A DNA stretch of 63,978 nucleotides, filler included, from a bacterium (GCA_040757115.1; 7 parts of 7 records of this genome joined end to end with filler, not necessarily neighbours in it), one strand, 5' to 3'. Positions 24,654 to 44,069 are shown, counted from the whole stretch's first letter. A program made the numbers and translations. Notes: generated by a model not told the origin, from the sequence alone.

Positions 24654-25874
24654 CTAAAATCCATATTTTATCCCTCCAAAAAAGGTTGTATTATCCTTAA
24701 GTAAACCGAAAAAACTATCCTCTTTCCCTTTGTATATATCAGTACCTATTATAGATGATAAATTATCTGTAAGGGTATAAATAATCTTTGGTCTAATGAG
24801 GTAATCTCTTCTTGTAAGATTATAAATTCCAGAAATCTCAGTACTTAATGTTTCATAAAACATCTTATCTACAATCTTCAATGATACAATATTTGTTACT
24901 TTATCAAGTTGGTTATTGATAATAGCCCCTTTGACAGCAATATCTCTTAAGATAGAATCTTGAATATTCAATGGGTCTTTATAATTAGTAACAATCCTTT
25001 GCATAAACTGAAGATTCAAATACATATCTTCCCAAAGTGTTTTGTCTACTCCAAAAATATAGAAGAAATAAGGATTCTTCTTCCATGGGCTATCTCCATC
25101 CATATCTTCTGTAAAAAAATAAGCCATCTCTCCCCTAACTCCGAACTCTCTCAATATCGTAGCAAAATCTCCACCAATAACTTTGATCCTTTGATATCTT
25201 TCTATGATCCCTTGGGTTGATAAACCAAGGTCTGGCATAGGATCAACGCCATCAAAATAGCTTAATGACCAGTCTAAAACACCACCCGTAGAATCTATCT
25301 TAAAGGCATATTGACCATTTTGAAAAGACTTTGATGGTAGTTCTTCAATAACAGGATAATTTAGTGGAAACTTATTGGATTCAAAGAAAGGGAGATATAT
25401 TCCAGTAAATGCAGTATTTCCATAATAATAATTTATCTTAAGTGCCATAATACCACTTCTTAAATCTCCATCCTCTGGAAAAAGCAATGTATAGTCCCAA
25501 GGAGTAAGGTTATCTGTTGGATTTACACCATCTGCTCTTCCCCATTGGATGATCTGTTTTCCAACCCGTAGGTTGAATGGATGTAAATAGATATCACTAT
25601 AGATTTCTCTCATAGAAGAATGAATACTTTCCCGCTGATTCTCTGCAATGATTCTTGCCTCACTATAAAGGGATAGATAAGAACCAAATTTTGTGGTTAT
25701 TTGTGGATGGAATGAGATACTGAAGATGTTCCTTTTTTGGTCAAGGTTTCTAGTGGAACTAAAATAGTATCCCTGTAAGATTCCATTTAAACTTATATCT
25801 TCTGCATAAACAAGGATGGGAATAAAAAGACAAGAAAAAATAGTATACAGAACTTTATTCTTGAAAAATGACAT
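24654..25874 (-). CDS. Outer-membrane beta-barrel (DUF1302-like)
   Basis: Signal peptide, RVGKQIIQWGRAD.NPTD, C-terminal KYGF. Confidence 0.75.
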   Translation of the reverse strand: MSFFKNKVLYTIFSCLFIPILVYAEDISLNGILQGYYFSSTRNLDQKRNIFSISFHPQITTKFGSYLSLYSEARIIAENQRESIHSSMREIYSDIYLHPFNLRVGKQIIQWGRADGVNPTDNLTPWDYTLLFPEDGDLRSGIMALKINYYYGNTAFTGIYLPFFESNKFPLNYPVIEELPSKSFQNGQYAFKIDSTGGVLDWSLSYFDGVDPMPDLGLSTQGIIERYQRIKVIGGDFATILREFGVRGEMAYFFTEDMDGDSPWKKNPYFFYIFGVDKTLWEDMYLNLQFMQRIVTNYKDPLNIQDSILRDIAVKGAIINNQLDKVTNIVSLKIVDKMFYETLSTEISGIYNLTRRDYLIRPKIIYTLTDNLSSIIGTDIYKGKEDSFFGLLKDNTTFFGGIKYGF

Positions 25875-25877
25875 AGT

Positions 25878-26663
25878 CTATTCAATCCTTTCCAAATACC
25901 CTGTTGTAAAAACATCGTCTCTTATACCTTTGTCGATTTCAATGTTTTCAAATGTAATAATTGTTCTATGGCCAGTTTTATGGTTTATAATCTCTCTCTT
26001 TGTAGCAAGCCATCTTTTCTTACCCAAATCTGATAAATAGAGGTCAGATATAAATTGTGTCTTGAGGAGTTCATTCTCTTCATCATAATATTCTATTTTC
26101 ATCTCTACAAAATTATCTTTTCTTATCCATAACACCTTTTTACTATAACCTGTATCCCTTTTAATTCTATCATCTTTTGAAGTGGACTCAACTATAAAGC
26201 AGTCTATCCCTTTAATCTTTTCTTCTCCTTTTAGGATATGAATAAAATCATCAATCTTTGGAGAAGCAATATCACCATAAGAAAAGTCAGAATTCATAAA
26301 GCTATCCCTTGTATTTCTTGAAATTATTCTCCTCGTTTTTTTTAAGGCAGGAAGATATATCCACATATCATGGTCACTTTCAGAATGTTCAATTGTCAAT
26401 ATACCGGTTCCTCGTATATCTTGTGGAGAATAAAATCTATATAATCTCTTGTAGTCTACCGAATTTTTTTGAAGTTTATTGATCACCTTGCCAACCCTAA
26501 TCCTCTCTCCACCTTTTTTATCTATTAATACCATCTTGCTTTGTGCTTGCCAGCCTAATACCTTCCCGGCATAATCATTATTCACCATAATCTCTCTGGC
26601 ATCCATGGCAAAAATAGAATTAACCCACATAAAAACTGAAATAATCCCTAATATTTTTCCCAT
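25878..26663 (-). CDS. Outer membrane lipoprotein-sorting (LolA-like) protein
   Basis: SPQDIRGTG, WIYLPALKKTRRI, SFMNSDFSYGD. Confidence 0.85.
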   Translation of the reverse strand: MGKILGIISVFMWVNSIFAMDAREIMVNNDYAGKVLGWQAQSKMVLIDKKGGERIRVGKVINKLQKNSVDYKRLYRFYSPQDIRGTGILTIEHSESDHDMWIYLPALKKTRRIISRNTRDSFMNSDFSYGDIASPKIDDFIHILKGEEKIKGIDCFIVESTSKDDRIKRDTGYSKKVLWIRKDNFVEMKIEYYDEENELLKTQFISDLYLSDLGKKRWLATKREIINHKTGHRTIITFENIEIDKGIRDDVFTTGYLERIE

Positions 26664-26972
26664 TTTATTCCCTCCTCTTATATCTTGAACGCTCTCAGAT
26701 AAAATGAGCGTTGATTTTATTAGCCTTCACACACCTCAAACTTTTCCTTCACCCCCATGTGTGGAGTAAAAAGGTTAGGGTTTAAGAAATTAGTTTTGTT
26801 TAGGGGTTAGGAGGTTAGTCTTATTTCCCTTCCTTGAAACCTCTCTGGTGCTGAACTTGATTCAGAACAGGTCAGGGATTTGCCCAAAATACTGTCCGAA
26901 CTTCTTCCCTATGGTTTTACCAACATCTTAACCCAACTTCCATACGGGCTTCCTAACCGTAACCTTTACCTT

Positions 26973-29297
26973 TTATCCGAGAGGCTTCATCTTTTCATAG
27001 AGAAACTTAGGTTTAAATATAGTAATCATTGCTGGAAGTAAGGTCACTGTTCCTAAAGAACTATTAATCATGTTCAATGCCACAAGTCCCCCCAGATGTT
27101 TATGATATATAAGTCCCGAAAATAGTAAGATAACAAAGCCTGCAGCTATAGCAGAGGAAACAAAGAATATGGCTTTCCCCGCGGTAAGCATGGTCTCTCT
27201 AATAGCCAAATTGTGATCTTTTAATTTCCTTATCTCTTCTTTATAACGAAAAATGAAGTAAAAAGCATAATCACTACCAATACTGATGGTTAGGGCAGAA
27301 ACTGCGGCAGTACTTAGAGAAAGCCATATCCCTGTGATCCCCATCAAACCGAAGTTGATAACTATAGCCACTAATGAAGGAGTAATAACATAGATACCTC
27401 CTACAAAAGATCTCAGGGCAAGAGATGCTATAAGAAATATAACAGTAGTAACTTGCCATATATTTTGTATCTTTTCATGGACGACATTATCATTTAATGC
27501 TCTCAAGGTACCCAATGAACCACCTGCAACTTCTACTGTTACATCAGTATTTCTAAAAAGGGTTGATGCTATATCTTTTGCTTCAGCAAAGATTTCATTT
27601 GAGAATGTTGCAGTGTCTATTTTTGTAAAGATTCTTATGACCCCATGTCGGTATTCTTGATCCACTATAAAATTCAAATCTTCAGAACTCAGAAGAAATA
27701 GGTATTGGCTAATAAGATTCTTATCTTTAGGGATACTATAGTAGTTTTTCTCATCACCATTCATTGCCATATTCATACGTTTGATGAAGTTAGCAAGGCT
27801 TATCGTTTTTCCAACTTCAGATCTTTTTTCTAAGTTTCTTTGAAGCCTGCTCATAGCATCCAAAACCTCAGGAGATTTAAGACTATCTGTTTTTTCCCCT
27901 TCAATAAGAATATTCATTATTGAAGTTCCAGCAAAGTGTTTATTGATAAAATCATCATCAAGCCTAACTTTCTCCTTTTTGCTAAATGCTCCGATAAAAC
28001 TATTATTCACTTTTATTTTTGTTGCGCCAAGAAGAGATATAGAGAGTATTAAAAAAAATGTTACTATTATTATTATAGGCTTGCCCAAAATCAATCTTAT
28101 TCCATTTTCTAAACACTTTTCTAATATTCCTTTCTTCTTTTTCTTTAAGATAAAGATATTTTTAGATGGAGGAAGAATAAAACGGATAGCAGGGATAAAG
28201 GTCATTTCCAATATTAAAGCGCTCAGTATCCCCACTGCTGTAAAAAGTCCAAATACCCTAATAGTTTTAATATCAAAAACTATGAGCGAAAGGAATCCAA
28301 TCACAGTTATTATCCCTGTAAGTAGCATTACTGAGCCTACACTCGAAACAGATTCAATTATTGCCAACCTATTATTACCTAAACGATCATATTCTTCATA
28401 ATACCTCTTTAAAATTTGGACAGCATGTCCGGCAGCCACGGATAGTATCAAGATAGGGGTCATAGAATTCCATACATCTATAGGAATCTTGAAAAAGCCC
28501 AGAATTCCTATCCCCCATATAACACTTAGGATACCAGTCAAAAGGGGGAAGATAATGGCCTGGATAGTTCTAAACGCCTCATAATGTATAAGCCCAATTA
28601 TAATTATGACAAAGATGAAAAGTATAGCCATTTTCCTGGAATAGACTTCTAAAAAATGGACAATACTTACAGGACCACCTAAATAGATATTGTGTTTTTT
28701 ATCCTTTACTTTCTCTACAATTTTTTCTACATTCTGGTAATAAGTGGAATAATTCCTATCTATCTCAAAGTCAATAATAATATTGGCTACTCTCCCATCT
28801 TTAGAAACTAAGAAAAAAGGAGCTAACTCATTTGTATATATCCTTCTTCTTAGTTCTTCCATCTCTTCGTGTGTTGTTGGTATGTTCTTTAATAAAGGAT
28901 TGATTTCTATACTACCTTCAACCCCTTTTATATCTCTGACATTTGGGGCAGTAATACTCAAACAATTGCTTTTTATAATACTCTTTAATTTCATAACCTC
29001 ATCTGTAATCTTCTTAATCTTCGTTAAGGTGTTAACATTAAATATATCTCCTTCTCTGTGTTCTATGCTGACAATTAAAATATTTACTCCCCCAAATATA
29101 TCTGCAATTTTATTATCTAGCATGACAAGAGGATGGTTTTGGGGGAGTTGATTTTTTCTTTCTATCTCTATTTTAAGAGAAAGTGCATGGAAGCCTAAAA
29201 AGACAGTAATAAATAAAATAATCACTATCACAAAAAATCTATACTTTATTATAAATTCCCCAAACCTTTTAAACATTTTACTTCTCATAGCACTCAT
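26973..29297 (-). CDS. MMPL/RND family transporter
   Basis: Two repeats of TM + periplasmic domain + 5 TM; SIGSDYA, GKAIFF. True start may be a few codons downstream. Confidence 0.88.
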   Translation of the reverse strand: MSAMRSKMFKRFGEFIIKYRFFVIVIILFITVFLGFHALSLKIEIERKNQLPQNHPLVMLDNKIADIFGGVNILIVSIEHREGDIFNVNTLTKIKKITDEVMKLKSIIKSNCLSITAPNVRDIKGVEGSIEINPLLKNIPTTHEEMEELRRRIYTNELAPFFLVSKDGRVANIIIDFEIDRNYSTYYQNVEKIVEKVKDKKHNIYLGGPVSIVHFLEVYSRKMAILFIFVIIIIGLIHYEAFRTIQAIIFPLLTGILSVIWGIGILGFFKIPIDVWNSMTPILILSVAAGHAVQILKRYYEEYDRLGNNRLAIIESVSSVGSVMLLTGIITVIGFLSLIVFDIKTIRVFGLFTAVGILSALILEMTFIPAIRFILPPSKNIFILKKKKKGILEKCLENGIRLILGKPIIIIVTFFLILSISLLGATKIKVNNSFIGAFSKKEKVRLDDDFINKHFAGTSIMNILIEGEKTDSLKSPEVLDAMSRLQRNLEKRSEVGKTISLANFIKRMNMAMNGDEKNYYSIPKDKNLISQYLFLLSSEDLNFIVDQEYRHGVIRIFTKIDTATFSNEIFAEAKDIASTLFRNTDVTVEVAGGSLGTLRALNDNVVHEKIQNIWQVTTVIFLIASLALRSFVGGIYVITPSLVAIVINFGLMGITGIWLSLSTAAVSALTISIGSDYAFYFIFRYKEEIRKLKDHNLAIRETMLTAGKAIFFVSSAIAAGFVILLFSGLIYHKHLGGLVALNMINSSLGTVTLLPAMITIFKPKFLYEKMKPLG

Positions 29298-29513: not shown

Positions 29514-29763
29514 GTAACTATTCAGCCATAGATGGACACGGATGAAACACTGAAAATTCGTAATCCGTGTCCGTAATTAGGTTGAAGGTTGAAGGGTTCT
29601 TCTCCTCCTAACTTTTATTTTCTCTCCTTCTTGATTCTCTGCGAGTGGAAGAAATTTCCATCCCAAAACCCCCGCCAGCGGGGGACAACCCGCCTCTGAC
29701 CTCTGTCTTCTGACCTCTGTATTTATCCATGCTAATCCGTGTTAATCAGTGGCTGAATAGTTC
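29514..29763. mobile_element. GTAA-ended MITE inside the biosynthetic operon
   Basis: GTAACTATTCAGCC / GGCTGAATAGTT-C ends; flanks ATCACATA/ATCGCATA match 7 of 8. Confidence 0.7.
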
Positions 29764-29817
29764 ATCGCATACAAAATAATTAATTATGCAATAAGTCTCC
29801 TGTATATTTTCATAACC

Positions 29818-30615
29818 TCATTTACTCATCTGGTATTTGACTATTTTAGCCACTACTTTTCTTGGAGTAAACCTGGTTAAAAAAATCTGGGCTTTGTTAT
29901 AGAAACCACAAACAACTACTCTTTTCCCTCTCATCAATGCACGATAGCCAGTTTTAGCGACTGTCGAAACTTCCATTACTGGTCCTCGAAATAAGTTTAT
30001 GCCTTCTATCTGTGCTCTCTTAGGAAACTCTGTGCGAGTTGGACCCGGACACAAAGTGGTCACTGTAACACCGCTACCTTCAAGTTCCTCTGCAAGGGCT
30101 TCTGACAAGCTTAAGATATAAGATTTAGCAGCACAATAAACTGCATTAAGTGGGCCAGGTACAAATGAACCAGTAGAACCAATATTTAATATCCTTCCGT
30201 ACCCATGTTTTAACATTTCAGGCAAAAATAATTTTATCAGTTGAGTAGACGACACAATGCTTACCTGAATCATCTGAAGTTCTTTTTTTATATCTGTTTC
30301 GGAGAAAGGTCCGTATACATTAAATCCCGCATTGTTAACTAAGATATCAATTTGAATAGACTCTTGCTGAAGTTCATCAAAAATCTCTTTAGCCGATGTT
30401 AAAGTAGACAAATCTTTTGGGAGAACTTTTATTAATACCCCAAAAGTCTTTCTTAATTCATTTGCTCGCTGATTGAGTCTTTGTTCGTCCCTTGCCACCA
30501 ATACGAGATTATAACCCTCCTGAGCAAACAATCTACTCAGTTCACAACCAATTCCACTGGATGCTCCAGTAATTAAAGCAGTTTTTTTGTTATCAAAATG
30601 GTCTAATTTTTCCAT
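29818..30615 (-). CDS. Short-chain dehydrogenase/reductase
   Basis: TGASSGIG, NNAG, YCAAK. Confidence 0.92.
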   Translation of the reverse strand: MEKLDHFDNKKTALITGASSGIGCELSRLFAQEGYNLVLVARDEQRLNQRANELRKTFGVLIKVLPKDLSTLTSAKEIFDELQQESIQIDILVNNAGFNVYGPFSETDIKKELQMIQVSIVSSTQLIKLFLPEMLKHGYGRILNIGSTGSFVPGPLNAVYCAAKSYILSLSEALAEELEGSGVTVTTLCPGPTRTEFPKRAQIEGINLFRGPVMEVSTVAKTGYRALMRGKRVVVCGFYNKAQIFLTRFTPRKVVAKIVKYQMSK

Positions 30616-30635
30616 ATTATCCTTCCTTCTTAATC

Positions 30636-31049
30636 TTAATGTAAATTTCTTATCTTAGATAAATTAATAATACTCAAAACAATTCCAATTAAACCTATTA
30701 GAGATAGAATTAAAGAATCTGGCCAATATAGCCACTTCGTAAAAATACTTAGTGTAGTAACCGCTCCCCAATAGAATATTACCAGGAAGAAAAAAATTGT
30801 CCACAATAACAGTTGGAATATTAATAAAACTCTCCTTTGAGCATTACTACCTATAAATAACCCTAATGAGGAATAAAGAAATACAAAGCCGATTAGTAGA
30901 TTTTCTATTAACAAGAATTCACGATATATACCTGTTGATTTAATAAGATAAAATTGAAAAATGATGTGCATAATTCCTGTGACAAAATTCAAAATTACAA
31001 GAGATAATAATAACTTTGATAAACACCGAATTGAATTAATTTTGTTCAT
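30636..31049 (-). CDS. Small four-TM membrane protein
   Basis: Four hydrophobic segments; ATGA coupling with the upstream gene. Confidence 0.7.
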   Translation of the reverse strand: MNKINSIRCLSKLLLSLVILNFVTGIMHIIFQFYLIKSTGIYREFLLIENLLIGFVFLYSSLGLFIGSNAQRRVLLIFQLLLWTIFFFLVIFYWGAVTTLSIFTKWLYWPDSLILSLIGLIGIVLSIINLSKIRNLH

Positions 31050-34000
31050 TGCATCTTTAATGAGTTAGAGTTTTTCTTATTCTTAAAAGCCCATGCTTGT
31101 TCCATAAATGCTTCAAGCCTTGTCTTAATATTAGTCTGTTGCAACCCGTCATCAACGAATGTGAGCATAGGAATATTTTGATTGAAGATTCTTAGTCTAT
31201 TAAAACACACCGTTGCTAACTTCCCTAAGGCGCAATTAAATCCAAAGGCATTTACCAAACCATCAACTTGTCTTTTTTCAACAAAATCAACGCATTTGCC
31301 AACAAACATCGAAGGAATAACAGGTGCTACCTTTGGATTAACATATTTTTCTGCATTTATCGTTAACCATTTGTTATTCTGATCAGGAAACATCTCAGAA
31401 TACCTTGCTGATATTTTTTCAATCCGTTCTTTGTATAATTTTAAAGTAGCACTCACTATCCAAGCAAAGGCTGATGTGCCATATTTTCTCCTCTCCCATA
31501 ATGTTGTAACTAATCTATCTGCACCGTAACTTATAAAATCGTGCCATGAAGGTGGAAGAATGATAACACCTCCCATCGCTTCAATACCTGCAAATATTTC
31601 AGCCATTCCATAATCATGGACTCTTGTATACGCATCGCCAACAATACCAATACGGACCAGATCTCTATCTACAACTTCAACACTTTTTAAGTGATCCATT
31701 GCTTCACCAAAATGTTTTACTAACTGATCTTTTCGAATACCAAGAGCCAAAATATACTTTGCCTTTTCATATACTTCGTCCGTGTTTCCTTTTACTTTTT
31801 CATAAGGTCTGATTTGATATTTATATCGTGATAAATAGTCGTAACAGATAAAAGATTCCCACAATTCTAGAGCAACTTTCATTCCAAAATGCTTTCTCCA
31901 GTCCAAAGGATTGTCAACTACAGGTCCAAATACCCATATTCCGTCAAATCCTTGTTTTATCAGCATTCTTTTATAAAGATCTTTAAATAGCGAAAATCGA
32001 CAGGCTTCTTCATATCCGAATAACAAAAATGCCGCTTTTTCAGGATAGAAATCTTCATTAGCAGCAGTTGCAAGTAAATCACCCAATATAACCTGATAGG
32101 TGCGGCACTGTTTTTCATTTGAAAACTTACGGCCTATGGTGTTTGAATACAATGTTGTCTTAGGAATTATCTTACATTTAATACTGTGCTTTTCGAATAC
32201 TTCTTTGGCACCGATCATTGATTCACAAACCGGCAATATATATACTATCCTATCCTCTCTCTTAATATCCCTTATTGTGATATTGACTGACGAAGATTTA
32301 TCTATATTGAAAGTAGATTTCACCTTTTTATTCACATCCATACTTTCCCAGAATGCTTCACACCTTGTCAAAATACCCGTCAAAGAATTGTGTTCATCAA
32401 ATTCTATTTCTAACCACTGATTATCTTTCAATGCTTCAGTAACGTAGGGTGTTAACATTGAATCCGCAGGACATCCAAATGTCGTTGCCACAATAGGAAG
32501 TAACCTATTGTTATTGTGTTTATTATAGGTATGAATGAATTCGAGCACATTCATTGTTCTATTACTGGTCTTCCATATAAGATCGATATTTCTAACATTA
32601 GAGTTAGATTCTTCTAAAGGCAAAATATCTCCTGGAATCATTGGCATTTCCAACCCCGCTAATCGTGAAACCAAATTCAAATTGAAGAACTTGTCATGGA
32701 TTATGTAAGGATGACCAATAAGTACAAAAAGTTTCTCAACAGATTTTGCATAATCCAAAGATTCTCTTCCAATATCTTTACACTTTGCAATAAACTCCCT
32801 TTGTGCAGCTATAGCTTTTTTGATAGCGATGAGCGTATCTTTCTCTGAAATATCCAATCTCATTCCTAACTCCACAAAGGCCTTCTCAATATTATTGATC
32901 TCCTCCTTCATTTTAATGGTATGAGTAAGTATATCAATATCCATTGATGCTTTTATAAAATCAGGTACTTGTTGCACATATTGGCAATTATGTGCAAATT
33001 TAGTTTTATAGCCTTCATCCGCCATGTTTAAAATGTACGGTAAGAATATTCTTTGTATTCCTCGCTCATACAAGTCAACAATGGCACCATAGACGGCTTT
33101 TATAGGATAGCAAGTATCAATCAAAATATTCGATAACCCTTTTTCATATATCTGTTTTGAATACTCATTTGAAATTTCTATATTATAACCAATTGCATTA
33201 AAAAATGTAGCCCACATAGGAAAGAGTTCGTAAAATAACAATATGCGAGGAATTCCAATAACTTCTTTTCCTTCGATTTTGTCACCTTTATACGATAACA
33301 GAATTTCATTTCTCTTTTTGAAATAGTCTGGATATCTTTTTGATATTGCAATCTTTTCTTTATCAAATTTACCACAAATGCTCCCATGAACTGACTCTTG
33401 GCCATCATTATACTTGAAACGAGTTAACATACAGAGATTTGCACATCCCTTACATTGCCTCCTCTCACTATTTACCAGTCGGTTTTTAAGCTCAAACCCA
33501 ACAAAAGAAGACCTATCTCTTATTTCTTTGGATGTAATGTAGGCAATCCCCAATGCTCCTGATATTTCATGGTGAGGTGGAATTATAATTTCTTTCTTCA
33601 AAATCTGCCCAAATGCTGCCGCAACACTTTTATTAAATGCTACACCACCCTGGAAGACTACTTTGTCTCCAATCGGTCGATTTCCAACCACTTTTTCAAG
33701 GTAATTCTTCGCAATTGAATAACTCAAACCAGCCACTATATCCTGTTTAGGTGTATTATTCTGCTGATAATGAATACAATCGGATTCCATGAAAACCGTG
33801 CATCTATTTCCCATATCAACTGGATTATTCGCTGCGATTGCTAAGTCAGAATATTCTTGATTCAAATCTATCTGAAGCCGATCTGCCTGTTCTGATAAGA
33901 AGGACCCTGTGCCGGCTGCACAGGTTTTATTCATCACAAAATCTACTATAGTACCCTTATTTATCCTGATATACTTTGAATCCTGTCCCCCTATTTCTAT

Positions 34001-36299: not shown

Positions 36300-36308
36300 C
36301 TTTTCCTT

Positions 36309-37643
36309 TCATTGGAATTCAGAAAATATTAATCCTGCATTATGACCGCCAAAAGCGAAAGAATGTGAAAGAGCTACTTTAATAGGATAAAACTTAACTT
36401 CTTGCACAAAATTAAGATCTCTAAGAGGATATTCAAGGTTTCGACAAATATGTGTCTTTTTGTGGAACACACTTAAAGCACTTACCACGGCTTCAATTGC
36501 TCCACTGGCGCCGATAGAATGGCCAATAAGAGATTTTGTAGAATTCACAAGGGGCTTTTTCTTAAATAAATGATCTATTACACGCGATTCAACTTCATCA
36601 TTTAACTGAGTACCTGTTCCATGGGCATTAATATAATCAATATCTTTGGGTTGAAGACCAGCATACGAAAGCATGTTGCGAATCATCCGACAAATTTCTT
36701 GTCCATTAGGCTCTATCATTAAAATACTGTAGGCATCAAATGTTTCCGCATAAGATAATATTTCTGCATATATTCTCGCATTATCTCCCATTCGTCTAAG
36801 TGCTATTCTCTCTTCTTCTAAGATTAATATAGCACATCCCCCTTCACTAAAAAGAAAACCAGAACGATAACAATCAAAAGGACGATTAATTTTATCAGGC
36901 ACTATATCTCCGTGCACTAAAGTATGCGCAACATCAAATCCGCGAAAAACACCACCATATGTATCTCCCATATATTCTACGCCGCCAGCCACAGCAATAT
37001 CAACCTCACCTGATTTTATCGCCTGATAAGCATGGCCTATAGCTACTGTTCCTGAAGCACAGGCCATTGAATATACACGATTTGGTCCCTTTAAACTGTA
37101 CCGTAATCCGATTCGGGCAGCACAGGCATTAGCCATGCCCATAGAAATAGCAAATGGATTGAAGCGTGCAGGAGCGGTTTCGAGATATTTCTGAATATTC
37201 TCATTCACCGCTTTCTTTAAAGGCTGGTATAATAAATAGGCTGTATTCTGAATTATAGACTTAATCCCGCCAATACCAGTACCTAAAAATACACCTACGC
37301 TGTCGGGCATGTTTTTAATCTGAAACACTCTTTTCCTTTCATTGGAAAAAGAGACAGAAAACCCTGCATCTTCCAATGCTTGATGGCAGGCAACCAGTGA
37401 AAGTTTTTGGGAAGTATCAAGTTGCATCTCATCAATCTTATTGATTTGATAATTCTCCCAACATATTTTTGGCAAAGGAGACCAAAATTGTGAATTTGTT
37501 ATCCCATATTCTCGCCACATTTCAGGTATTTCACAAATTACACTTTTCCCCTCAAGGCATTTCTCCCAAAAATCATTTACACCCCATCCTATGGAAGTAA
37601 CAATTCCTATGCCAGTAATCACCACTTTCCTCTTGCTACTCAT
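36309..37643 (-). CDS. fabF: Beta-ketoacyl-ACP synthase II-like
   Basis: VVITGIG, ACASG (Cys), NAHGTGT and GHSIGASG (His-His), SFAFGGHN. Confidence 0.9.
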   Translation of the reverse strand: MSSKRKVVITGIGIVTSIGWGVNDFWEKCLEGKSVICEIPEMWREYGITNSQFWSPLPKICWENYQINKIDEMQLDTSQKLSLVACHQALEDAGFSVSFSNERKRVFQIKNMPDSVGVFLGTGIGGIKSIIQNTAYLLYQPLKKAVNENIQKYLETAPARFNPFAISMGMANACAARIGLRYSLKGPNRVYSMACASGTVAIGHAYQAIKSGEVDIAVAGGVEYMGDTYGGVFRGFDVAHTLVHGDIVPDKINRPFDCYRSGFLFSEGGCAILILEEERIALRRMGDNARIYAEILSYAETFDAYSILMIEPNGQEICRMIRNMLSYAGLQPKDIDYINAHGTGTQLNDEVESRVIDHLFKKKPLVNSTKSLIGHSIGASGAIEAVVSALSVFHKKTHICRNLEYPLRDLNFVQEVKFYPIKVALSHSFAFGGHNAGLIFSEFQ

Positions 37644-37903
37644 AATTCATCCCTCAGAATATTTGTCTTGATATAGTGGAAAGTATCACCAATTGTTTTG
37701 AGTTTACGAAATTCATTTTCTGAAATAGTACACTTACATTCTGTTTCAAAACCTACCAGTAATGTAATCATTTCAACCGAATCGACTCCCAGATCATTTT
37801 GATAATGCGTTTCAAAAGTTAGGTTTTCTGTTTTAACATTTAACACATCTGATACGATTTTTTTTATTTTAGCAATTATTTCCTCATCATTAAGCATTTT
37901 CAT
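37640..37903 (-). CDS. Acyl carrier protein
   Basis: DLGVDSVE phosphopantetheine site; start at ATG 37903 or 37897 after AAGGA. Confidence 0.88.
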   Translation of the reverse strand: MKMLNDEEIIAKIKKIVSDVLNVKTENLTFETHYQNDLGVDSVEMITLLVGFETECKCTISENEFRKLKTIGDTFHYIKTNILRDEL

Positions 37904-38145
37904 GCTTCCTTTGAAAATAGGAATTGGTTCTTCTCTCCCTAAAAGGTTTGAATTCTTGTTTCTCTTAAAATATTTTGAGATTCTTGAGATTTTGTGCAGA
38001 CTCATTGAGATTTATTCTAACAATCAATCTCCATACGTCTCTATCAATCTTAATTTAGATATGAACCTAATGCGCTAACAAAAACAACAATACCAAGAGA
38101 GCAAAACCTCTCACAATAACCTTTCTCATAATGTATCCTGTTTTT

Positions 38146-39093
38146 TTAATAGCCATTTAAAGTCCTTTTTAAACCCTCTTCAATAGAAACTTCTGCCCTC
38201 CATCCAAGATCATTTGAAAATCTCGTCCTGGGAAAATCTGCATTAATAGAAACTATATCAATTGCACGCTTTGAAAGAAAGGGAGATTGTTTATTTCCAA
38301 AAAGATAATAAATCGCCTCAACAATAATTGCAAGTCCCATAAGAGGAATCTTTGGAAGTATCAAGGACGGTAATCTGTAACCTGCGTTTGTAGCAAGCAG
38401 ACGGATAAAATCATGTATTCCTATCTCTCCTTCCTGAATTCCCAAATAGTGTTTTCCTACTGATCTTTCGTCGGTTGCAACCTTCATAAATAATCGGCAA
38501 AGGTCATCTATATAAATCAACGGTGCCGATTTCTCTCCACCTCGTACTAAAAATACCCTATTCTTTCCTAAATAGTGTATAAGAGTAGGCAAAAACTGTT
38601 TATCACCAGGACCATATATCAATCCCGGATAGACAAAGGTTACCTGTAATCCATATCTCTCAATATATTTTTGCACTATTCGATCTGCTGCCCATTTACT
38701 CAGCGCATAATCTGTTGCAAGAAACTTATACCTGGGGTTTACACGAAGTGCGGCAATTGAAGAACAATGCACAAGACGGCACCAAGGAGCATATTGTATA
38801 ATAGTTTGACATATGTTCTCCGTACCATCAACATTAACCTGGCGGAAGCTCTGATGGGAACCATTGTGTACATGGGCGGCAAGATGTACACATACACCAG
38901 CATTTTGCATAAGAGACGATAATACTTCTTTATTACGAATATCTCCATACACAATCTCTGCTCCATTTTTAATAAGGTCCGTAGCCTTCTGAGGTGTATG
39001 TACCAGACAAATAATCTTATTTCCTTCCCGAATAGCCCATTGCGCAAACCGTTTGCCCAGAAATCCTGTTGCTCCTGTTATAGCAATATTCAT
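38146..39093 (-). CDS. NAD-dependent epimerase/dehydratase (extended SDR)
   Basis: TGATGFLG, HLAA, YALSK, IYGPGD. Confidence 0.9.
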   Translation of the reverse strand: MNIAITGATGFLGKRFAQWAIREGNKIICLVHTPQKATDLIKNGAEIVYGDIRNKEVLSSLMQNAGVCVHLAAHVHNGSHQSFRQVNVDGTENICQTIIQYAPWCRLVHCSSIAALRVNPRYKFLATDYALSKWAADRIVQKYIERYGLQVTFVYPGLIYGPGDKQFLPTLIHYLGKNRVFLVRGGEKSAPLIYIDDLCRLFMKVATDERSVGKHYLGIQEGEIGIHDFIRLLATNAGYRLPSLILPKIPLMGLAIIVEAIYYLFGNKQSPFLSKRAIDIVSINADFPRTRFSNDLGWRAEVSIEEGLKRTLNGY

Positions 39094-40160
39094 AACTGTA
39101 TTTCCCTTCCGTCTTTCTGATACTTCCCACGGATAATACCAGTAAGTAACCGTGCATAATATACCGTTTTACCGTACAGTCCTATTGTACACTTTCTATA
39201 CCAGTAAGATTGTCTAATTTGTTCCCAATATGCTTTGGGCAATCCTTGTTTTAAATACGCCATAATAGGTTTTTCAGCTTTATTTGGAATCGGAGAACGT
39301 ACTATTAACACCTTTCGGAATACATTTTTATAATACTTCTCGTACCGCAATAATTCTTTTAAACTTGTAATTGTTTTCACTTTCAAACCGCGATTCTCAA
39401 GTACATCAAATAGGGAAACCAACGATTTATTGGTGGATCCTGGTGTGGTAATTACCAGTGCTTCATCTATTTCTTTCACCAGAGATTGATCAAGTTCTTC
39501 AATTTCTCTTATGGGGCTGGACGAACTCTTAACCCACATACAATAAGTTTCTTTCATCCTATGTTCACGATAGGGGAATATCGTCTTAATATAGTCAAAT
39601 ATTTTCAGTGCGTGCACAGGAAGAAATGTAACATACGGTATTAAGTACATTGGTTTTCCACAGGACTGTTCCGCAATACGTTCCCGGTAATTAGCCATTT
39701 GCACAAGAATCATATCCTTTGGAAACAATGAAGCATAATTTTTAATGAGAAGATGATTGGACTCACATAAGAATACATATTGATACTTCTCGTCGGCTGA
39801 CTCAAAAATCCTGCGAACAGCACGAATAAAAGGACATGGAAGATCAATGATTTCAATACCGCGCTCCCGTAATTGTTTTTCTTCATGGACGATGGAATCA
39901 TAGCCAGTGTTCACAACTATATAATCCATACCTTCCGATAGGTCCTGTAGAGTATCTACGACAGGAACACCCAAACTTTTGAGCCATTGCAGGTCAACAC
40001 CAACTCTGCCACCATCGTTCGTCAACCAATCGCGAATCACATATATTTTCTTCCCAAAGGGATCCCATGATTTTTTGAGCAAAGTAGGCATGTAGCCTTT
40101 AAGTATCTTATTTTCCAGCCATTTACAACGTCCATCATGTTTCAGAAAGACATATTCCAT
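39090..40160 (-). CDS. Diverged IspH/LytB-fold putative [4Fe-4S] protein
   Basis: Three spaced Cys in IspH-like contexts (GRCKW, IIDLPCPFI, ETYC) plus GSTN; start at ATG 40160 with GAGGA SD. Confidence 0.6.
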   Translation of the reverse strand: MEYVFLKHDGRCKWLENKILKGYMPTLLKKSWDPFGKKIYVIRDWLTNDGGRVGVDLQWLKSLGVPVVDTLQDLSEGMDYIVVNTGYDSIVHEEKQLRERGIEIIDLPCPFIRAVRRIFESADEKYQYVFLCESNHLLIKNYASLFPKDMILVQMANYRERIAEQSCGKPMYLIPYVTFLPVHALKIFDYIKTIFPYREHRMKETYCMWVKSSSSPIREIEELDQSLVKEIDEALVITTPGSTNKSLVSLFDVLENRGLKVKTITSLKELLRYEKYYKNVFRKVLIVRSPIPNKAEKPIMAYLKQGLPKAYWEQIRQSYWYRKCTIGLYGKTVYYARLLTGIIRGKYQKDGREIQL

Positions 40161-40926
40161 AGGAGTATCCTCGAACAAAATTTCTGTAGGCCACCAATGC
40201 CTGTCGCCCCTCAAACGACTCCAGCATCTCAGCCGGATAACCAAATCCTTTGCAGGTAACTTTGCTACCTAAAGTCCTCATCTGATAAGACTCAATTAAT
40301 GCTGAAGCATTGAATATCGTTCCACGTTTATTCACCATTACTTCCTGCAGAGTAAGAATGATATCAACATGAAGCGGGAATAAAAATGAATGAAATGATA
40401 CATTCATTTCATTGAGCACAAAGCGATACTTGCTACAGTGATGATTATTTGTATCCTTTAAATATTTCTTTTCCAAAAAGATTTCACTAACTGCTGTATA
40501 CATCTGCCGGCTAGCTTCAATCAAAATGGTTCCTTGAATATGAACTCCAGTAATATGGTCAGATAAATCTTCACAACCTCCATCTATAACTAATGAAGAC
40601 TGAAATACTCCATTTTTTGTTTCTACTGGAAAAGTGATAAGTACATTATTAGGCTTTGTCTTATGAACCAGGTGGTGAGAAATACGATGAGAAAAATTTT
40701 CTTCTATAAAAATATCTTTTGATTGAAAAATACCGTCTATCTTCTCACGAAGGTAGTCCAATATTTCTTTATCACACCCTTGTCCGATAATAAAACGCTT
40801 TGCAGGAATAACTCCTCTCTCAATCTCCTTCAATAATTGAGAGCACGTAACGACACCTTCCCACCTGCAAAAATTATTATATCGGTCACCCACAATAAAA
40901 TAGACTTTCTCTTGTTGCATAGACAT
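40135..40926 (-). CDS. AfsA/ScbA-related hotdog-domain protein (butyrolactone/butenolide synthase-like)
   Basis: HLVHK..NVLIT, DHITGVHIQGTILIEASRQ match the AfsA LVH..DH.PGM.L.EAARQ signature. Confidence 0.8.
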   Translation of the reverse strand: MSMQQEKVYFIVGDRYNNFCRWEGVVTCSQLLKEIERGVIPAKRFIIGQGCDKEILDYLREKIDGIFQSKDIFIEENFSHRISHHLVHKTKPNNVLITFPVETKNGVFQSSLVIDGGCEDLSDHITGVHIQGTILIEASRQMYTAVSEIFLEKKYLKDTNNHHCSKYRFVLNEMNVSFHSFLFPLHVDIILTLQEVMVNKRGTIFNASALIESYQMRTLGSKVTCKGFGYPAEMLESFEGRQALVAYRNFVRGYSYGICLSET

Positions 40927-41315: not shown

Positions 41316-41344
41316 ATTCTACTACAATATTTCTCATCTGTCAA
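41316..41344 (-). promoter_or_regulatory. Promoter for the afsA operon, TTGACA-N17-TAGAAT
   Basis: Perfect -35 abutting the lux box. Confidence 0.75.
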
Positions 41345-41363
41345 CCTGTAAATTTTTACAGGT
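41344..41363. promoter_or_regulatory. lux box ACCTGTAAATTTTTACAGGT
   Basis: 15 of 20 identical to the Vibrio fischeri lux box ACCTGTAGGATCGTACAGGT; within a 13-bp perfect inverted repeat (41340-41367) upstream of luxI. Confidence 0.88.
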
Positions 41364-41391
41364 TGACTTTTGAAAAATTATTTTTTAAAAT
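41363..41391 (+). promoter_or_regulatory. Promoter for luxI, TTGACT-N17-TAAAAT
   Basis: Mirror image of the minus-strand promoter. Confidence 0.75.
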
Positions 41392-41424
41392 CTATTCAAA
41401 GGGAGGGAAAAAGGAAGAAATGTA

Positions 41425-42183
41425 GTGAGTCAAGAGAAACTCAAAAATAACTCTCAAATGGACATAAACCCTCCTATTTCCTTCCAAGAAGGTCCTCTAA
41501 TTGTAAAAGAGATAAGAAATTGGGAGGAAAAGTTGTGTGTTTATCGTTTAAGACATAAGGTCTTTTGTGAAGAATTGAAATGGGTTCCCTGCACAAAAGA
41601 TAAACTGGAAATAGATGAGTATGACCAAAAATCTGTCCTCTTCGGTGTCTTTGATACGACGACCTTAAAGCCGAATAAGAAACTCCTCGCGTGCTTGAGA
41701 CTTATTCTCCCAGAAAGCGATTTTATGTTAGAGAGAGAATTCTCCTGCCTCATTGAGCCAGGGTATCATATAAGGAAGGAAAATGATACCGTAGAAATTT
41801 CAAGATTATCCGTAGCACCTGAGGCAAGAGGTAAAATATTATCCCATAATTTTAACTTTTACTATGTCTCTTTTCTCCTCTATAAAGGAATCTATCTCTG
41901 GAGTATTATACATAATATAAAGTATTTTTACATAGTGGTGGAATTAAAATTTTATCGGCTATTGCGCATCATGGGATTTTCTTGTAGAGCGATAGGAAAG
42001 CCTGAAGTAATGGAGGATAGGGTTATCGCCATAGCAGCAATATTATCTCGGAGAGATTTTGAGGTATTAAATGAAAGTAGAAATCCGGCGATGATAAGAT
42101 GGTTTAGTCAATATCAATCAAACCCTGCTCAAGAGCAATGGCAACACACTGAGCCCTATTTACTGCATCAAGCTTTTGCATAA
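41425..42183 (+). CDS. luxI: LuxI-family acyl-homoserine-lactone synthase
   Basis: YRLRHKVFCEELKW, LEIDEYD, CLRL, VEISRLSV conserved residues; start GTG 41425 or ATG 41458. Confidence 0.88.
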   Translation: MSQEKLKNNSQMDINPPISFQEGPLIVKEIRNWEEKLCVYRLRHKVFCEELKWVPCTKDKLEIDEYDQKSVLFGVFDTTTLKPNKKLLACLRLILPESDFMLEREFSCLIEPGYHIRKENDTVEISRLSVAPEARGKILSHNFNFYYVSFLLYKGIYLWSIIHNIKYFYIVVELKFYRLLRIMGFSCRAIGKPEVMEDRVIAIAAILSRRDFEVLNESRNPAMIRWFSQYQSNPAQEQWQHTEPYLLHQAFA

Positions 42184-42859
42184 TATTTTGCAGATGAAAG
42201 ATTACAGTCCGTTCACTAATCTCCAAAATCATTGATATTTCCCAGGAAGTCTTCCCTTCTTTTATCCAATTAATTACCTCTTTTTCTCGAGGGGAGAGAT
42301 GAATTTCTCTTTTCTTTCCCAAGGAGATTACCCGAGTGAGTGCGTGGTGAAAATGCGGAATAATTTGGCAAAGGATAATTTCGGTACGCTCATTATGCTC
42401 TACAGATTTTCCCCCGATAGAAAATAGACTCCCTTTGTGTGAAGAAAAATCTCGTAATCCATATGTATAACCTTCTCCCAGATTAAAAGACTCTGCTGTA
42501 TATAGAAAATCTTTCGGCGGAGGGTTTCTTTTATAAGTTTCTATCCAATACTGTAGTCTGTAGTTTAAAAAATTTTCTTTAAAGATCGGGTCAACTTTAT
42601 AATATTTTCTTTCCAGATAAATTTTTAACCACTCCTCAGGATAGCTTATATTTATAAGTTTAGAAGAAGGGATCCACAAGTCTATCGTTGTGTTTTTCTT
42701 AAGAGTGCATAATAAAGAAATGGCATGGTCGTAAGGCAGTATTAGATTTAACTTCTGAATTAACTTTTTTAAGTCCTCTTCATTATTACAGGAAAGACTT
42801 TCCTCAATTAATTCTAAAAGACAGATAGTATCTTGTTTGGATAATAAATTCTTCAACAT
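42104..42859 (-). CDS. luxR: LuxR-family AHL-binding regulator
   Basis: YPEEW..Y, VDP, W and G autoinducer-binding residues; LSPREKEV.W..EGKTSWEI HTH. ATG 42859 preferred because 42886 lies within a repeat. Confidence 0.93.
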   Translation of the reverse strand: MLKNLLSKQDTICLLELIEESLSCNNEEDLKKLIQKLNLILPYDHAISLLCTLKKNTTIDLWIPSSKLINISYPEEWLKIYLERKYYKVDPIFKENFLNYRLQYWIETYKRNPPPKDFLYTAESFNLGEGYTYGLRDFSSHKGSLFSIGGKSVEHNERTEIILCQIIPHFHHALTRVISLGKKREIHLSPREKEVINWIKEGKTSWEISMILEISERTVIFHLQNIMQKLDAVNRAQCVAIALEQGLIDID

Positions 42860-42860
42860 A

Positions 42861-43363
42861 TTCCCCTGAAAATGTTCGTAACTCATTGTAATTCCTTGAT
42901 TTACAAAACTACATTTTCATCGTCCTTCTCCTGAAAATGTGTGTAAGTTATTGTAATTGCTTGAGTTACAAAATTACATTTTCATCGTCCTTTGTGAGTC
43001 GCAGACTCATGAGCGTTTCCCCTGAAAATAGCGAATTAGTGAATTAGAGATTAGCGAATTAGTATAGTATCCACAGACTCGTATCCTCTGGTTTAGAACA
43101 CATATTCCCCCTTAATAAAGGGAGTTAGGGGGTTGTCCTTCTCCCATTTTCATTGCCCTTTGTGAGCCCTGGCTCATGTCCGTTTCCCCTGAAAATAGCG
43201 AATTAGTGAATTAGAGATTAGCGAATTAGTATAGTATCCACAGACTCGTATCCTCTGGTTTAGAACACATATTCCCCCTTAATAAAGGGAGTTAGGGGGT
43301 TGTCCTTCTCCCATTTTCATTGCCCTTTGTGAGCCCTGGCTCATGTCCGTTTCTCCTGAAGAT
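42861..43363 (-). mobile_element. Tandem array of four family A units, including a 167-bp duplication (43014-43180, 43181-43347)
   Basis: Five AGG(A/G)GAA cores, the last directly before the luxR ATG. Confidence 0.85.
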
Positions 43364-44065: not shown

Positions 44066-44069
44066 GTTA

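Follow-up and report, generated by a model that had tools for sequence, protein, structure and literature searches.

A LuxI/LuxR-flanked gene cluster with AfsA-family and IspH-like proteins on a probable genomic island of a candidate-phylum bacterium

The window analysed here is a stretch of 63,978 nucleotides (nt) from a bacterial genome (GCA_040757115.1), and this report concerns a gene cluster within it in which an AfsA-family hotdog protein, an IspH-like iron-sulfur (Fe-S) protein and an extended short-chain dehydrogenase/reductase (SDR) are encoded beside a LuxI/LuxR quorum-sensing pair. Twelve open reading frames (ORFs) run on the minus strand from 40926 down to 24654. Beyond them lie a plus-strand luxI-like gene and a minus-strand luxR-like gene, which are convergent and overlap by 80 nt, and a lux-type palindrome separates luxI from the first gene of the operon. 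The first three operon genes form a trio around which an uncharacterised gene-cluster family, widespread among anaerobes, is built. The features are listed in Table 1.

The window consists of seven contigs concatenated with six linkers, each made of 44 N, TTAATTAATTAA and 44 N. Gene neighbourhoods that span a linker are artificial and ORFs that run over one are artefacts; an ORF at 23453-23941 was rejected as a gene as it spans such a linker. The whole finding lies within a single contig, 23505-52701 (29,197 bp). Domains were called with Pfam and NCBIfam profiles, bit scores being compared with the curated cut-offs, and hydropathy was computed by script. A sequence-only reading had described twelve co-directional genes coupled by overlaps, a luxR convergent with luxI, and a lux box; ORF calling, Pfam and a pattern scan recovered all of these, and Pfam bore out each of its domain calls. 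Within the operon there are four overlaps, one of 26 nt between the AfsA-like and IspH-like genes (with the 356-aa start of the latter) and three of 4 nt (IspH-like/extended SDR, acyl carrier protein (ACP)/ketosynthase (KS), and PlsA-like/membrane protein). The remaining gaps are mostly 3-20 nt. Longer ones follow the extended SDR gene and the tetratricopeptide repeat (TPR) gene (136-140 nt), the MMPL gene (309 nt, before the LolA-like gene) and the classical SDR gene (520 nt, before the MMPL gene). None of the biosynthetic proteins passed an NCBIfam equivalog cut-off, and their sole NCBIfam pass was a generic 'acyl-CoA dehydratase activase' domain model. No RNA runs containing the island stretch are listed; one DNA run contains it, is labelled groundwater metagenome and is probably the source of the DNA.

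Table 1. Features of the cluster and of related loci (positions in the window unless a locus label is given)
Feature	Position	Strand	Basis or remark
AfsA-family single-hotdog protein, small N-terminal alpha/beta domain	40135..40926	-	Pfam AfsA PF03756
IspH/LytB-fold Fe-S protein, 356 aa	39090..40160 (ORF to 40244)	-	Pfam LYTB
Extended SDR (NAD-dependent epimerase/dehydratase family)	38146..39093	-	Pfam Epimerase E 3.7e-28
LuxI-family acyl-homoserine lactone (AHL) synthase-like protein	41425..42183	+	Pfam Autoind_synth 56.6 bits vs 24
LuxR-family receptor/regulator	42104..42886	-	Pfam Autoind_bind 69.6 and GerE 70.8 bits
28-bp near-perfect palindrome GTCAACCTGTAAAT/TTTTACAGGTTGAC around 20-bp lux-type box	41340..41367		unique in window
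Operon-facing promoter-like site TTGACA, 17 nt, TAGAAT	41316..41344	-	11/12
luxI-facing promoter-like site TTGACT, 17 nt, TAAAAT	41363..41391	+	10/12
ACP	37640..38005	-	Pfam PP-binding; DSV serine motif
FabF-like elongating KS	36309..37643	-	Pfam ketoacyl-synt N and C domains
TPR protein with signal/anchor segment	35412..36299	-	weak Pfam TPR and TAtT matches; hydrophobic segment 40-61
PlsA-like 1409-aa fusion, two activase ATPase domains and DUF2229/HGD-D part	31046..35275	-	Pfam
Small membrane protein, 137 aa, four hydrophobic segments	30636..31049	-	hydropathy script
Classical SDR, ketoreductase type	29818..30615	-	Pfam adh_short E 2e-47
MMPL / HAE3-type resistance-nodulation-division (RND) inner-membrane exporter	26973..29297	-	Pfam MMPL E 2.5e-47
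LolA-like periplasmic lipid/lipoprotein carrier	25878..26663	-	Pfam LolA_like E 1.2e-58; N-terminal hydrophobic segment
Predicted outer-membrane beta-barrel-like protein	24654..25874	-	marginal DUF1302, signal-like N-terminus, C-terminal ...KYGF
Dispersed repeat copy in 520-nt SDR/MMPL gap	29514..29762		83-90% identical copies on several G001 contigs
Dispersed-repeat copies downstream of last gene, near contig start 23505	24216..24486		direct-repeat families D2-D4; many G001 contigs
Dispersed and tandem repeat block, right edge of island	42861..43339		2 x 167-nt tandem at 43006-43339
Linkers	5816-5915, 11705-11804, 17587-17686, 23405-23504, 52702-52801, 58514-58613		44 N + TTAATTAATTAA + 44 N each
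IspH-like/SDR natural fusions	P0070, P0073, P0075, P0079, P0089, P0108		632-639 aa; one from record named Clostridia bacterium
agr-type genes upstream of trio cluster	L044 548-3443; L036 268-1755		Firmicutes-like metagenome contigs
Polyketide synthase/AfsA-like/phosphatase cluster	L001 649-15243; L002 2445-13583		with SDR, flavin monooxygenase, major facilitator superfamily transporters
G001 luxIR locus	L018 (G001:C120) 194-6287		divergent operon: DUF362 Fe-S protein, two methyltransferases, U32-family protein

The sequence-only reading staked its case on the first operon gene belonging to the AfsA family, and this assignment stands by sequence: PF03756 matches at E 2.5e-8 with 34.4 bits (cut-off 24), and the Pfam scans reported no FabA/FabZ family for the protein. 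The motif VHK...SDH..G.H..G..LIEA.RQ is common to 21 relatives (22 aligned sequences), and a scanned representative of a sister subtype found in related loci matches PF03756 at E 2.4e-21. In the AlphaFold2 (AF2) model (mean predicted local distance difference test, pLDDT, 86.4) an alpha/beta domain at residues 8-75 is followed by one hotdog at about 100-231 and a C-terminal helix. When PDB chains were searched with its sequence, no meaningful match came up.

The two nearest genome homologues (30-34% identity) both come from metagenome-assembled genomes of Gammaproteobacteria. In both, a polyketide synthase with KS, acyltransferase, dehydratase, ketoreductase and ACP domains precedes the AfsA-like gene, which is followed in the same order by genes for a haloacid dehalogenase (HAD) phosphatase, an SDR and a flavin monooxygenase; in one of them (L001) genes for a class I fructose-bisphosphate aldolase and a phosphopantetheinyl transferase lie nearby. 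These clusters are likely butenolide pathways in which an AfsA-like protein off-loads the chain in trans. Their layout matches the published chain-release logic, since passages of PMC7756420 describe release by an AfsA domain with dihydroxyacetone phosphate (DHAP) and subsequent dephosphorylation by a phosphatase, and the part of PMC11877004 that treats the A-factor route names AfsA, BprA and a phosphatase. AfsA-domain proteins occur in 12 phyla in varied neighbourhoods, according to the survey portions of PMC8209734. Family membership, an unreduced KS/ACP supply in the operon and the polyketide synthase/phosphatase context of the homologues all favour AfsA-type chemistry for the protein of the window.

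The second member of the trio matches Pfam LYTB with 41.4 bits against 24.5, and the same score lies well below the 187.85 bits of the equivalog model TIGR00216. The start that gives 356 aa is backed by a database gene call and by homologues. There are 108 database homologues with 46-57% identity, and the named source records include Nitrospirota, Desulfobacterales, Candidatus Thiodiazotropha, Dysgonomonas, Bacteroidota, Lachnospiraceae, Clostridia and Pseudomonadota. When a profile built from 36 members was run against 1.84 billion representatives, 35 proteins were recovered at E 1e-10 or better. The E-values jump from 1.3e-13 to 2e-7, and matches below the gap are about 280 aa long, the size of canonical IspH. 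Judged by these searches, the IspH-like proteins form a compact family that is separate from IspH. The fold is that of IspH: the AF2 model (pLDDT 90.5) has IspH structures as all ten of its best PDB fold matches, with a target-normalised TM-score of 0.70 at E 1.1e-11 (up to 0.71) at 13-16% identity. Across the family C109, C132 and C207 never vary and C12 hardly does, with spacings that we take to be like those of the three cluster ligands of IspH.

The extended SDR is encoded next to it; among the biosynthetic proteins the NCBIfam OleD model reaches 84 bits against 580. Six of the 108 IspH-like homologues are natural fusions of an IspH-like protein and an extended SDR, which suggests that the two proteins act together.

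The IspH-like profile scan gave 33 metagenome loci, whose ORFs were clustered and the cluster representatives annotated; 13 of these loci have at least 3 kb on both sides of the IspH-like gene and form the well-flanked subset. An extended SDR gene neighbours the IspH-like gene in 26 of the 33 loci and in every well-flanked one. An AfsA-type hotdog gene does so in 28 (5 of the window subtype and 23 of the sister subtype), among them 12 of the 13 well-flanked loci, and the loci without an SDR or AfsA-type gene are mostly short contigs. The core genes are conserved together, as the sequence-only reading had supposed, and are not unique to the window but part of a widespread cluster family; what is found in none of the 33 loci is the LuxI/LuxR wiring and the export set. 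The small membrane protein has a counterpart in 12/33 loci (8/13 well-flanked). A radical S-adenosylmethionine (SAM) enzyme is encoded in 10/33 (7/13), and a 1409-aa PlsA-like protein, 50-58% identical to that of the window, in 4/33 (L020, L033, L042 and L046; 3/13 well-flanked). The two enzymes occur together in 0/33 loci and 0/13 well-flanked ones, and 3/13 well-flanked loci have neither. Other recurrent neighbours encode FabH-like KS III, ACP, FabD, acetyl-CoA carboxylase subunits and SAM synthetase, while TetR and HxlR regulators, two-component systems, pumps with RND, membrane fusion and outer-membrane efflux components, and an FtsX permease vary with the lineage. Export and regulation that vary by lineage are typical of secreted specialised metabolites.

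Two further observations were made in these loci. A TetR-family gene is present in 4/13 well-flanked loci and stands divergently beside or near the AfsA-type gene in L026, L034 and L049; the pairing recalls the synthase/receptor pairs of Streptomyces, and two of the four TetR loci also carry RND pumps as possible targets. Additionally, a DUF772 transposase gene adjoins the AfsA/SDR/IspH-like/PlsA-like cluster in L033 (1551-2978) and the same gene is found in L046, which is consistent with mobility of the cluster family.

In two related loci the trio is linked to a quorum-sensing system of another kind. In L044, genes for an AgrC-like histidine kinase, AgrB (E 1.3e-38), a 61-aa peptide and a response regulator lie directly before the trio cluster. 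AgrB, peptide and a LytTR regulator are likewise encoded in L036, and the L044 response regulator falls into the same ORF cluster as this LytTR regulator. The two peptides share the motif P.CT.IIHQP.IPE..L, which presumably marks AgrD precursors. Downstream of the agr genes both loci encode FabD, acetyl-CoA carboxylase, the AfsA/SDR/IspH-like trio, FabH, SAM synthetase and a radical SAM enzyme. A third locus, L045, resembles L044, and its contig starts past the position of the agr genes. With 2/13 well-flanked loci that are probably two related lineages, the agr link is a pattern and not a statistic.

At the locus of the window the regulatory genes are of the LuxI/LuxR type. The LuxI-like protein matches solved synthases weakly (TofI, 3p2f, E 0.0015; RpaI, 6wn0, E 0.0026). 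It keeps the positions R..F.....W, D..D, R and E.SR in these alignments; an N-terminal R/F/W set, an acidic pair, an R and E.SR are the hallmarks of LuxI proteins. Among its 56 database homologues some are named AHL synthase in their source records, including ones from Thermodesulfovibrionia and Nitrospiraceae, and a Geotalea uraniireducens protein is 43% identical. NCBIfam equivalog cut-offs were missed, TraI models giving 57-59 bits against 250-292, and the best NCBIfam model was an exosortase-associated acyltransferase (69.9 vs 111.95). Residues 21-253 of the LuxR-like protein align to residues 22-254 of CviR (3qp6) at E 2.8e-34, and the pocket residues Y, W, Y and DP (Y..W...Y........DP) are kept.

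A 20-bp lux box, ACCTGTAAATTTTTACAGGT, lies at 41344-41363. It is the only site in the window, and 0/100 shuffles reached as many matches (mean 0.03). A dyad-symmetric box that is unique in the window and placed at promoter-like sites is what would be predicted of a LuxR target, and the sequence fits this prediction. The palindrome around the box is centred exactly between two mirror-image promoter-like sites, one facing the operon and one facing luxI; the operon-facing site shares the top score in a 19.6-kb promoter scan, and the centre of the box is about 44 nt upstream of each start as reckoned from these sites. The shared lux box of the sequence-only reading is to this extent real as a divergent layout around a lux-type palindrome. 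Two other candidates near this region were set aside. A box-like site inside luxR (42775-42792) has one mismatch and is within chance expectation. An 83-aa ORF at 41086-41337 belongs to no family and is probably spurious; it was not counted as a gene because it is unlike the small ORF at the paralogous locus of a sister genome and its start codon falls between the -35 and -10 elements of the operon-facing promoter-like site.

The sister genome, G001, is of the same species and is a 770-contig draft, so that absence from it means 'not found'. It carries paralogues of the luxI and luxR genes (58% and 57% protein identity) with the same convergent overlap, and a similar palindrome, GTCAACCTGTCATTTCTGACAGGTTGC, lies there between luxI and a divergent, unrelated operon. 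The latter may be another density-controlled anaerobic modification pathway.

The other operon genes fall into a biosynthetic and an export group. NCBIfam ACP models cover residues 41-115 of the ACP ORF, and the true start is probably later than that of the ORF because the likeness is limited to residues of about 40-115. The ketosynthase has its Cys-His-His triad (C195, H341 and H375) in the expected motifs and scores 316.8 bits against the 493.75 of TIGR03150 (FabF). No enoyl reductase or acyltransferase was found among the Pfam matches of the operon, which fits the supply of a beta-ketoacyl-ACP. The TPR protein is weakly like the sterol-transport protein BstC (NCBIfam 27.7 bits vs 350). The PlsA-like fusion has two BcrAD_BadFG domains (E 7.2e-74), DUF2229 (E 3e-53) and a sub-threshold HGD-D match (20.3 vs 28.4), and scores 330.9 bits against the 125.4 of TIGR00241. 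These domains, the HGD-D match being weak, follow the Act1-Act2-Red1-Red2 layout that the legend to Fig. 8 of PMC12838417 gives for single-gene plasmalogen synthases. A homologue of the classical SDR, whose best NCBIfam match is mycolate reductase (193 bits vs 380), adjoins the PlsA-like gene in 3/33 related loci. For the 137-aa membrane protein there was no Pfam or NCBIfam match, and an Atlas search returned unnamed clusters only (scores 0.88-0.91).

In the export group the MMPL protein scores 234.7 bits against the 351.9 of NCBIfam HAE3. The barrel-like protein matches DUF1302 with 23.7 bits against 23.2, a sum in which no single stretch passes alone. The export proteins are weakly like HpnN, MmpL3 and BstC, all below the NCBIfam family cut-offs. 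Homologues of the MMPL, LolA-like, barrel, LuxI and LuxR proteins were found in 0/33 related loci at E 1e-8, and the LuxI/LuxR wiring and the MMPL/LolA-like/barrel set are particular to the locus of the window.

Comparison with G001 bears on how the cluster came to this species. G001 is 96-99% identical to the other contigs of the window and to 43314-52701. Of 23505-43313 it has only dispersed repeats and a 67% identical paralogous luxIR stretch; identity resumes at 43314, and the G001 contig with the shared flank continues into a different gene. The candidate phylum is represented by 24 species genomes, again drafts in which a null count means 'not found'. None of 40 relatives yielded the AfsA-like protein. 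Members of the AfsA family were found in 0/24 phylum genomes, the positive control being found in 2/2 homologue-bearing genomes, and the IspH-like protein at E 1e-25 in 0/24. A DUF2229 protein was not found in G001, the family search being positive in four named control genomes. LuxI-family proteins occurred in 1/24 phylum genomes, namely G001. The segment 23505-43313 is probably a strain-specific, horizontally acquired island. It has been resident in the species for some time, because its G+C content is that of the flanks (34-38%) and the species' own repeats lie inside it. Additionally, COX1 was found in 0/5 genomes of the family and pyruvate:ferredoxin oxidoreductase (PFOR) in 5/5, and the cluster encodes oxygen-sensitive enzyme types. 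The guess of the sequence-only reading that the host is an anaerobe agrees with this, and the host fits a groundwater anaerobe of a small candidate phylum.

The dispersed repeats are about 130-290 nt long and have hairpin cores such as GTGAGTCGCAGACTCATGAG; dozens of copies that are 83-99% identical occur in G001, often at contig ends, and more copies lie in the window at about 11401-11607, 17811-18100, 52800-52930 and 59985-60227. They look like a family of miniature inverted-repeat transposable elements or repetitive extragenic palindromes that fragments assemblies of this species.

Taken together, these data lead us to favour, tentatively and as something a little short of probable, a horizontally acquired, density-regulated pathway to an exported, reductively tailored lipid of the butenolide type. 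The dedicated FabF-like ketosynthase and the ACP would build a beta-ketoacyl-ACP, and a homodimer of the AfsA-like protein would off-load the beta-ketoacyl chain onto a glycolytic C3 unit (DHAP) to give a butenolide-type head group. The IspH-like enzyme, by analogy with the chemistry of IspH, could then remove an allylic oxygen function reductively, and the SDRs would reduce keto groups. The PlsA-like enzyme, as an ATP-driven radical enzyme, might further reduce or dehydrate an ester or hydroxyl, a role that would pass to the radical SAM enzyme in other lineages. The MMPL pump, LolA-like carrier, TPR protein and outer-membrane barrel would move the hydrophobic product across the envelope. Expression would respond to the LuxI signal through the 28-bp palindrome between the divergent promoter-like sites, on a transcript that would extend over the operon. 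The gene content, the conservation of the trio, the palindrome with its G001 counterpart and the lack of the cluster in G001 are observations; the chemistry, the product, the direction of regulation and the length of the transcript are our inferences.

Several observations weigh against the chemistry of this pathway. The PF03756 match covers half of the profile, residues 86-151 corresponding to positions 1-65 of 133, and both the single Pfam stretch and the AF2 model have one hotdog per polypeptide. AfsA and ScbA have two tandem hotdog repeats in one polypeptide. A homodimer could replace the double hotdog: a homodimer model of the AfsA-like protein scored 0.77 against 0.00 for the best of three controls, with runs that agree in at least 84% of contacts, partner pLDDT of at least 81 and the conserved motif at the predicted interface. 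This mark is reached by 20/30 proteins whose solved structure is a pair of one chain and by 1/23 with a single-chain structure. Since hotdog dimers are common in solved structures, likeness may be all that the pass reflects. The best fold matches of the AfsA-like model are FabZ dehydratases and thioesterases, led by anammox FabZ (7qv0, E 5.5e-8, target-normalised TM-score 0.77), with no AfsA structure among them, and a modelled hotdog fold does not discriminate acyl transfer from dehydration. DHAP condensation can be proposed by analogy only, because the protein has a single hotdog and its closest folds are FabZ dehydratases. In the IspH-like protein, only the second-Cys and Asn-His segment aligns to solved IspH (3dnf), and there is no Glu after the His; IspH has a catalytic His/Glu pair. 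The PlsA-like type of enzyme acts on membrane phospholipids, as described in sections of PMC9702350, which favours a membrane lipid. Finally, there is no phosphatase in the island, the His_Phos_1 gene at 43442-44569 belonging to the shared core. The 375-aa ORF of that gene is probably over-extended, since the G001 orthologue has 258 aa, and it overlaps the 3' end of a PBP1-type gene ORF (44244-46520).

The main alternative is an accessory modified fatty-acid or ether-type envelope lipid, which is possible though rather unlikely. The hotdog protein would then be a FabZ-like dehydratase (or a thioesterase) that carries out no DHAP condensation, the IspH-like and PlsA-like proteins would perform an oxygen-independent dehydroxylation or form a vinyl ether, and the MMPL, LolA-like and barrel proteins would insert the lipid into the outer membrane. 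The FabZ structures that lead the fold matches are ACP-dependent enzymes, and the His and Glu of DH..G..LIEA.RQ sit at what we take to be the places of the FabZ catalytic pair. The operon has a KS, an ACP and SDRs of the ketoreductase type, its exporters resemble a lipid-trafficking set, and the trio lies amid FabD, acetyl-CoA carboxylase and FabH genes in L036, L044 and L045. The Act1-Act2-Red1-Red2 layout of the 1409-aa protein points the same way, so far as the legend in PMC12838417 describes it. On the other side, the hotdog protein and its relatives belong to PF03756 by sequence with no FabA/FabZ family reported, and its nearest homologues are encoded between a polyketide synthase that has its own dehydratase domain and a HAD phosphatase. 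The cluster is accessory (not found in G001 or in any of the 24 phylum genomes) and is accompanied by lineage-specific regulators and pumps, which would be unusual for a core membrane lipid. Moreover, plsA/plsR, or a single plsA in facultative anaerobes, reportedly sufficed for plasmalogen synthesis in recombinant E. coli according to abstracts, and 10/13 well-flanked loci have the trio without a PlsA-like gene. An exported butenolide-type lipid is the reading that we continue to favour.

The regulatory step of the favoured pathway has its own difficulties. Both near-consensus -35 hexamers lie in the palindrome, and because they are part of it the site fits activation and repression alike; the LuxR-like protein could be acting as a repressor, or the promoter likeness could be incidental. 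The promoter scan finds no excess, with 72 sites against a shuffle mean of 76.1, and the argument for the promoter-like pair is one of symmetry, position and rank in the sequence and not of count. A 383-nt leader separates the predicted start from the first operon gene; Rfam gave nothing credible in it, and its fold was not clearly better than those of shuffles (z -1.88). The export genes stand behind the repeat-holding 520-nt gap, which has a promoter-like site of its own, and the pattern scan of the window found no second lux box before them.

It is conceivable on these grounds, but unlikely, that the quorum-sensing pair and the operon are mere neighbours, with the palindrome serving the autoinduction of luxI while the operon is expressed independently of density; this alternative touches regulation alone. 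The length of the leader, the scan without enrichment and the single box would all suit such an arrangement, as would the finding that the trio in the 33 related loci is independent of LuxI and LuxR. It is opposed by the centring of the palindrome between mirror-image sites, of which the operon-facing one shares the top score of 11/12, while a weak 9/12 site at 41271-41244 is the sole other minus-strand promoter-like site listed between the palindrome and the first gene. Further, the G001 paralogue has the same divergent layout with another operon, and the trio is independently linked to agr in Firmicutes-like loci. A different connection between the two, which we consider very improbable, is that the operon provides LuxI with an unusual acyl chain, or exports one for it, and that the locus is a factory for a non-standard acyl-homoserine lactone. 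The dedicated KS and ACP could hand a 3-oxoacyl-ACP to the adjacent LuxI, whose relatives include enzymes with unusual acyl donors (the weak RpaI match). However, the trio and PlsA-like block are conserved across 33 loci without LuxI, and the LuxI paralogue of G001 stands beside an unrelated operon. Control of a butenolide-type pathway by the LuxI/LuxR pair remains our preferred account of the layout.

The horizontal acquisition proposed as part of that account depends on the assembly. The junction at 43314 lies in repeats and mis-assembly is possible there. That the cluster was linked to this species by an error of assembly or binning, through a chimera formed at repeats, is nevertheless the least credible of the explanations considered here. 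Identity with G001 begins inside the repeat block, the other contig end stops beside repeats, and the stretch is known from a single DNA run that is probably its source. Against a chimera, the G+C content equals that of the flanks, the dispersed repeats of the species lie inside the cluster at 29514-29762 and 24216-24486, and the luxIR pair of the island is paralogous, at 57-58% identity, to the pair that the species itself possesses, the two boxes being similar.

A wider proposal, which we regard as doubtful, is that the trio constitutes a new route, needing no oxygen, to lipid signals or antibiotics of the butenolide or furan type, transferred among anaerobes of at least five phyla and repeatedly placed under density control, by LuxI/LuxR as well as by agr. 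In the bacterium of the window an AHL would then induce the export of a second lipid made through the AfsA-like protein, and the IspH-like protein, by taking an allylic oxygen function off the butenolide head group, would be the first enzyme of the IspH family outside isoprenoid synthesis. The cascade from AHL to butyrolactone signal that the sequence-only reading had suggested is speculation, because the island has no phosphatase and, in the Pfam scan, no TetR receptor.

To our knowledge, butyrolactone and butenolide signals come almost solely from aerobic actinomycetes, and we know IspH solely as the last enzyme of the methylerythritol phosphate (MEP) pathway. The conserved pairing of an AfsA-family protein with a distinct IspH-fold Fe-S enzyme points towards lipid metabolites of anaerobes that form an unexplored class, and towards a reaction not previously seen for the IspH fold, and if the cascade were true it would be a two-tier signalling system outside the actinomycetes. 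The repeated adjacency to quorum-sensing genes offers a direct experimental handle. The cluster would also bring AHL-type regulation into a candidate phylum whose genomes otherwise gave no LuxI (1/24 genomes). Should the envelope-lipid explanation hold instead, this would be a new accessory pathway for ether-type or otherwise modified envelope lipids, with a bearing on bacterial ether-lipid biomarkers.

The cluster can be compared with several known systems. Like the A-factor/gamma-butyrolactone pathway of Streptomyces, in so far as it is described in the relevant part of PMC11877004, the island has a PF03756 hotdog protein beside NAD(P)-dependent reductases, here two SDRs, and its KS and ACP make a beta-ketoacyl-ACP donor plausible. 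It differs in having a single hotdog and neither a phosphatase nor a TetR-type receptor gene, and it adds an IspH-fold Fe-S protein, a PlsA-like radical enzyme, a LuxR-type regulator and an anaerobic host from a candidate phylum. With the AfsA-mediated release of gladiofungin/gladiostatin-type polyketides, as outlined in passages of PMC7756420, it shares its nearest homologues (30-34%), which lie between a KS-acyltransferase-dehydratase-ketoreductase-ACP synthase and a HAD phosphatase, whereas the island has a discrete type II KS and ACP, no phosphatase and other tailoring enzymes.

Compared with IspH, the 4-hydroxy-3-methylbut-2-enyl diphosphate reductase of the MEP pathway, the IspH-like protein has the whole fold, the Pfam LYTB assignment and the conserved Cys residues in common. 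It differs in its identity of 13-16%, in scoring 41 bits against a cut-off of 188 and in belonging to a separate family, whose genes neighbour those of an AfsA-type protein and an SDR, are sometimes fused to the latter, and encode proteins in which the Asn-His is kept without the Glu. The PlsA-like protein resembles PlsA/PlsR and the radical enzymes of the benzoyl-CoA reductase/2-hydroxyacyl-CoA dehydratase family in joining two activase domains and a DUF2229/HGD-D-like part in one chain, as the legend in PMC12838417 depicts them. Its likeness is one of domain layout only; the island protein lies in a specialised cluster and is interchangeable with a radical SAM enzyme across loci.

The regulatory pair corresponds to LuxI/LuxR circuits, with CviR as the closest solved receptor, in its Pfam families, in the pocket segment of CviR and in a 20-bp CTG...CAG dyad about 44 nt upstream of the predicted starts. 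It departs from them in that NCBIfam equivalog cut-offs are missed, the 28-bp palindrome holds both -35-like hexamers and LuxI occurs in 1/24 genomes of the phylum. The export genes are like known MMPL/LolA lipid export sets in that MMPL, LolA_like, TPR (weakly BstC-like) and barrel proteins are encoded downstream of KS, ACP, SDR and hotdog genes. Sets of an MMPL/RND pump and a LolA-like carrier are found in aryl-polyene clusters and in the hopanoid HpnN and sterol BstABC systems. Aryl-polyene clusters encode a chain-length-factor KS, an adenylating enzyme, a thioesterase and acyltransferases beside KS, ACP, ketoreductase, dehydratase and LolA/MMPL proteins, and an assignment of the island to this type was rejected since those hallmark domains are absent from the Pfam matches of the twelve genes.

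No described cluster was recognised by the sequence-only reading, and full-text literature searches too listed none for the pairing of AfsA-type and IspH-like proteins, the supplementary tables of PMC8209734 and PMC7756420 apart; nor was an IspH-like or LytB-like family of this sort described among the papers listed. Each part of the cluster belongs to a known superfamily, and what is new is an AfsA-type cluster with a new family of Fe-S partner proteins and LuxR-type wiring.

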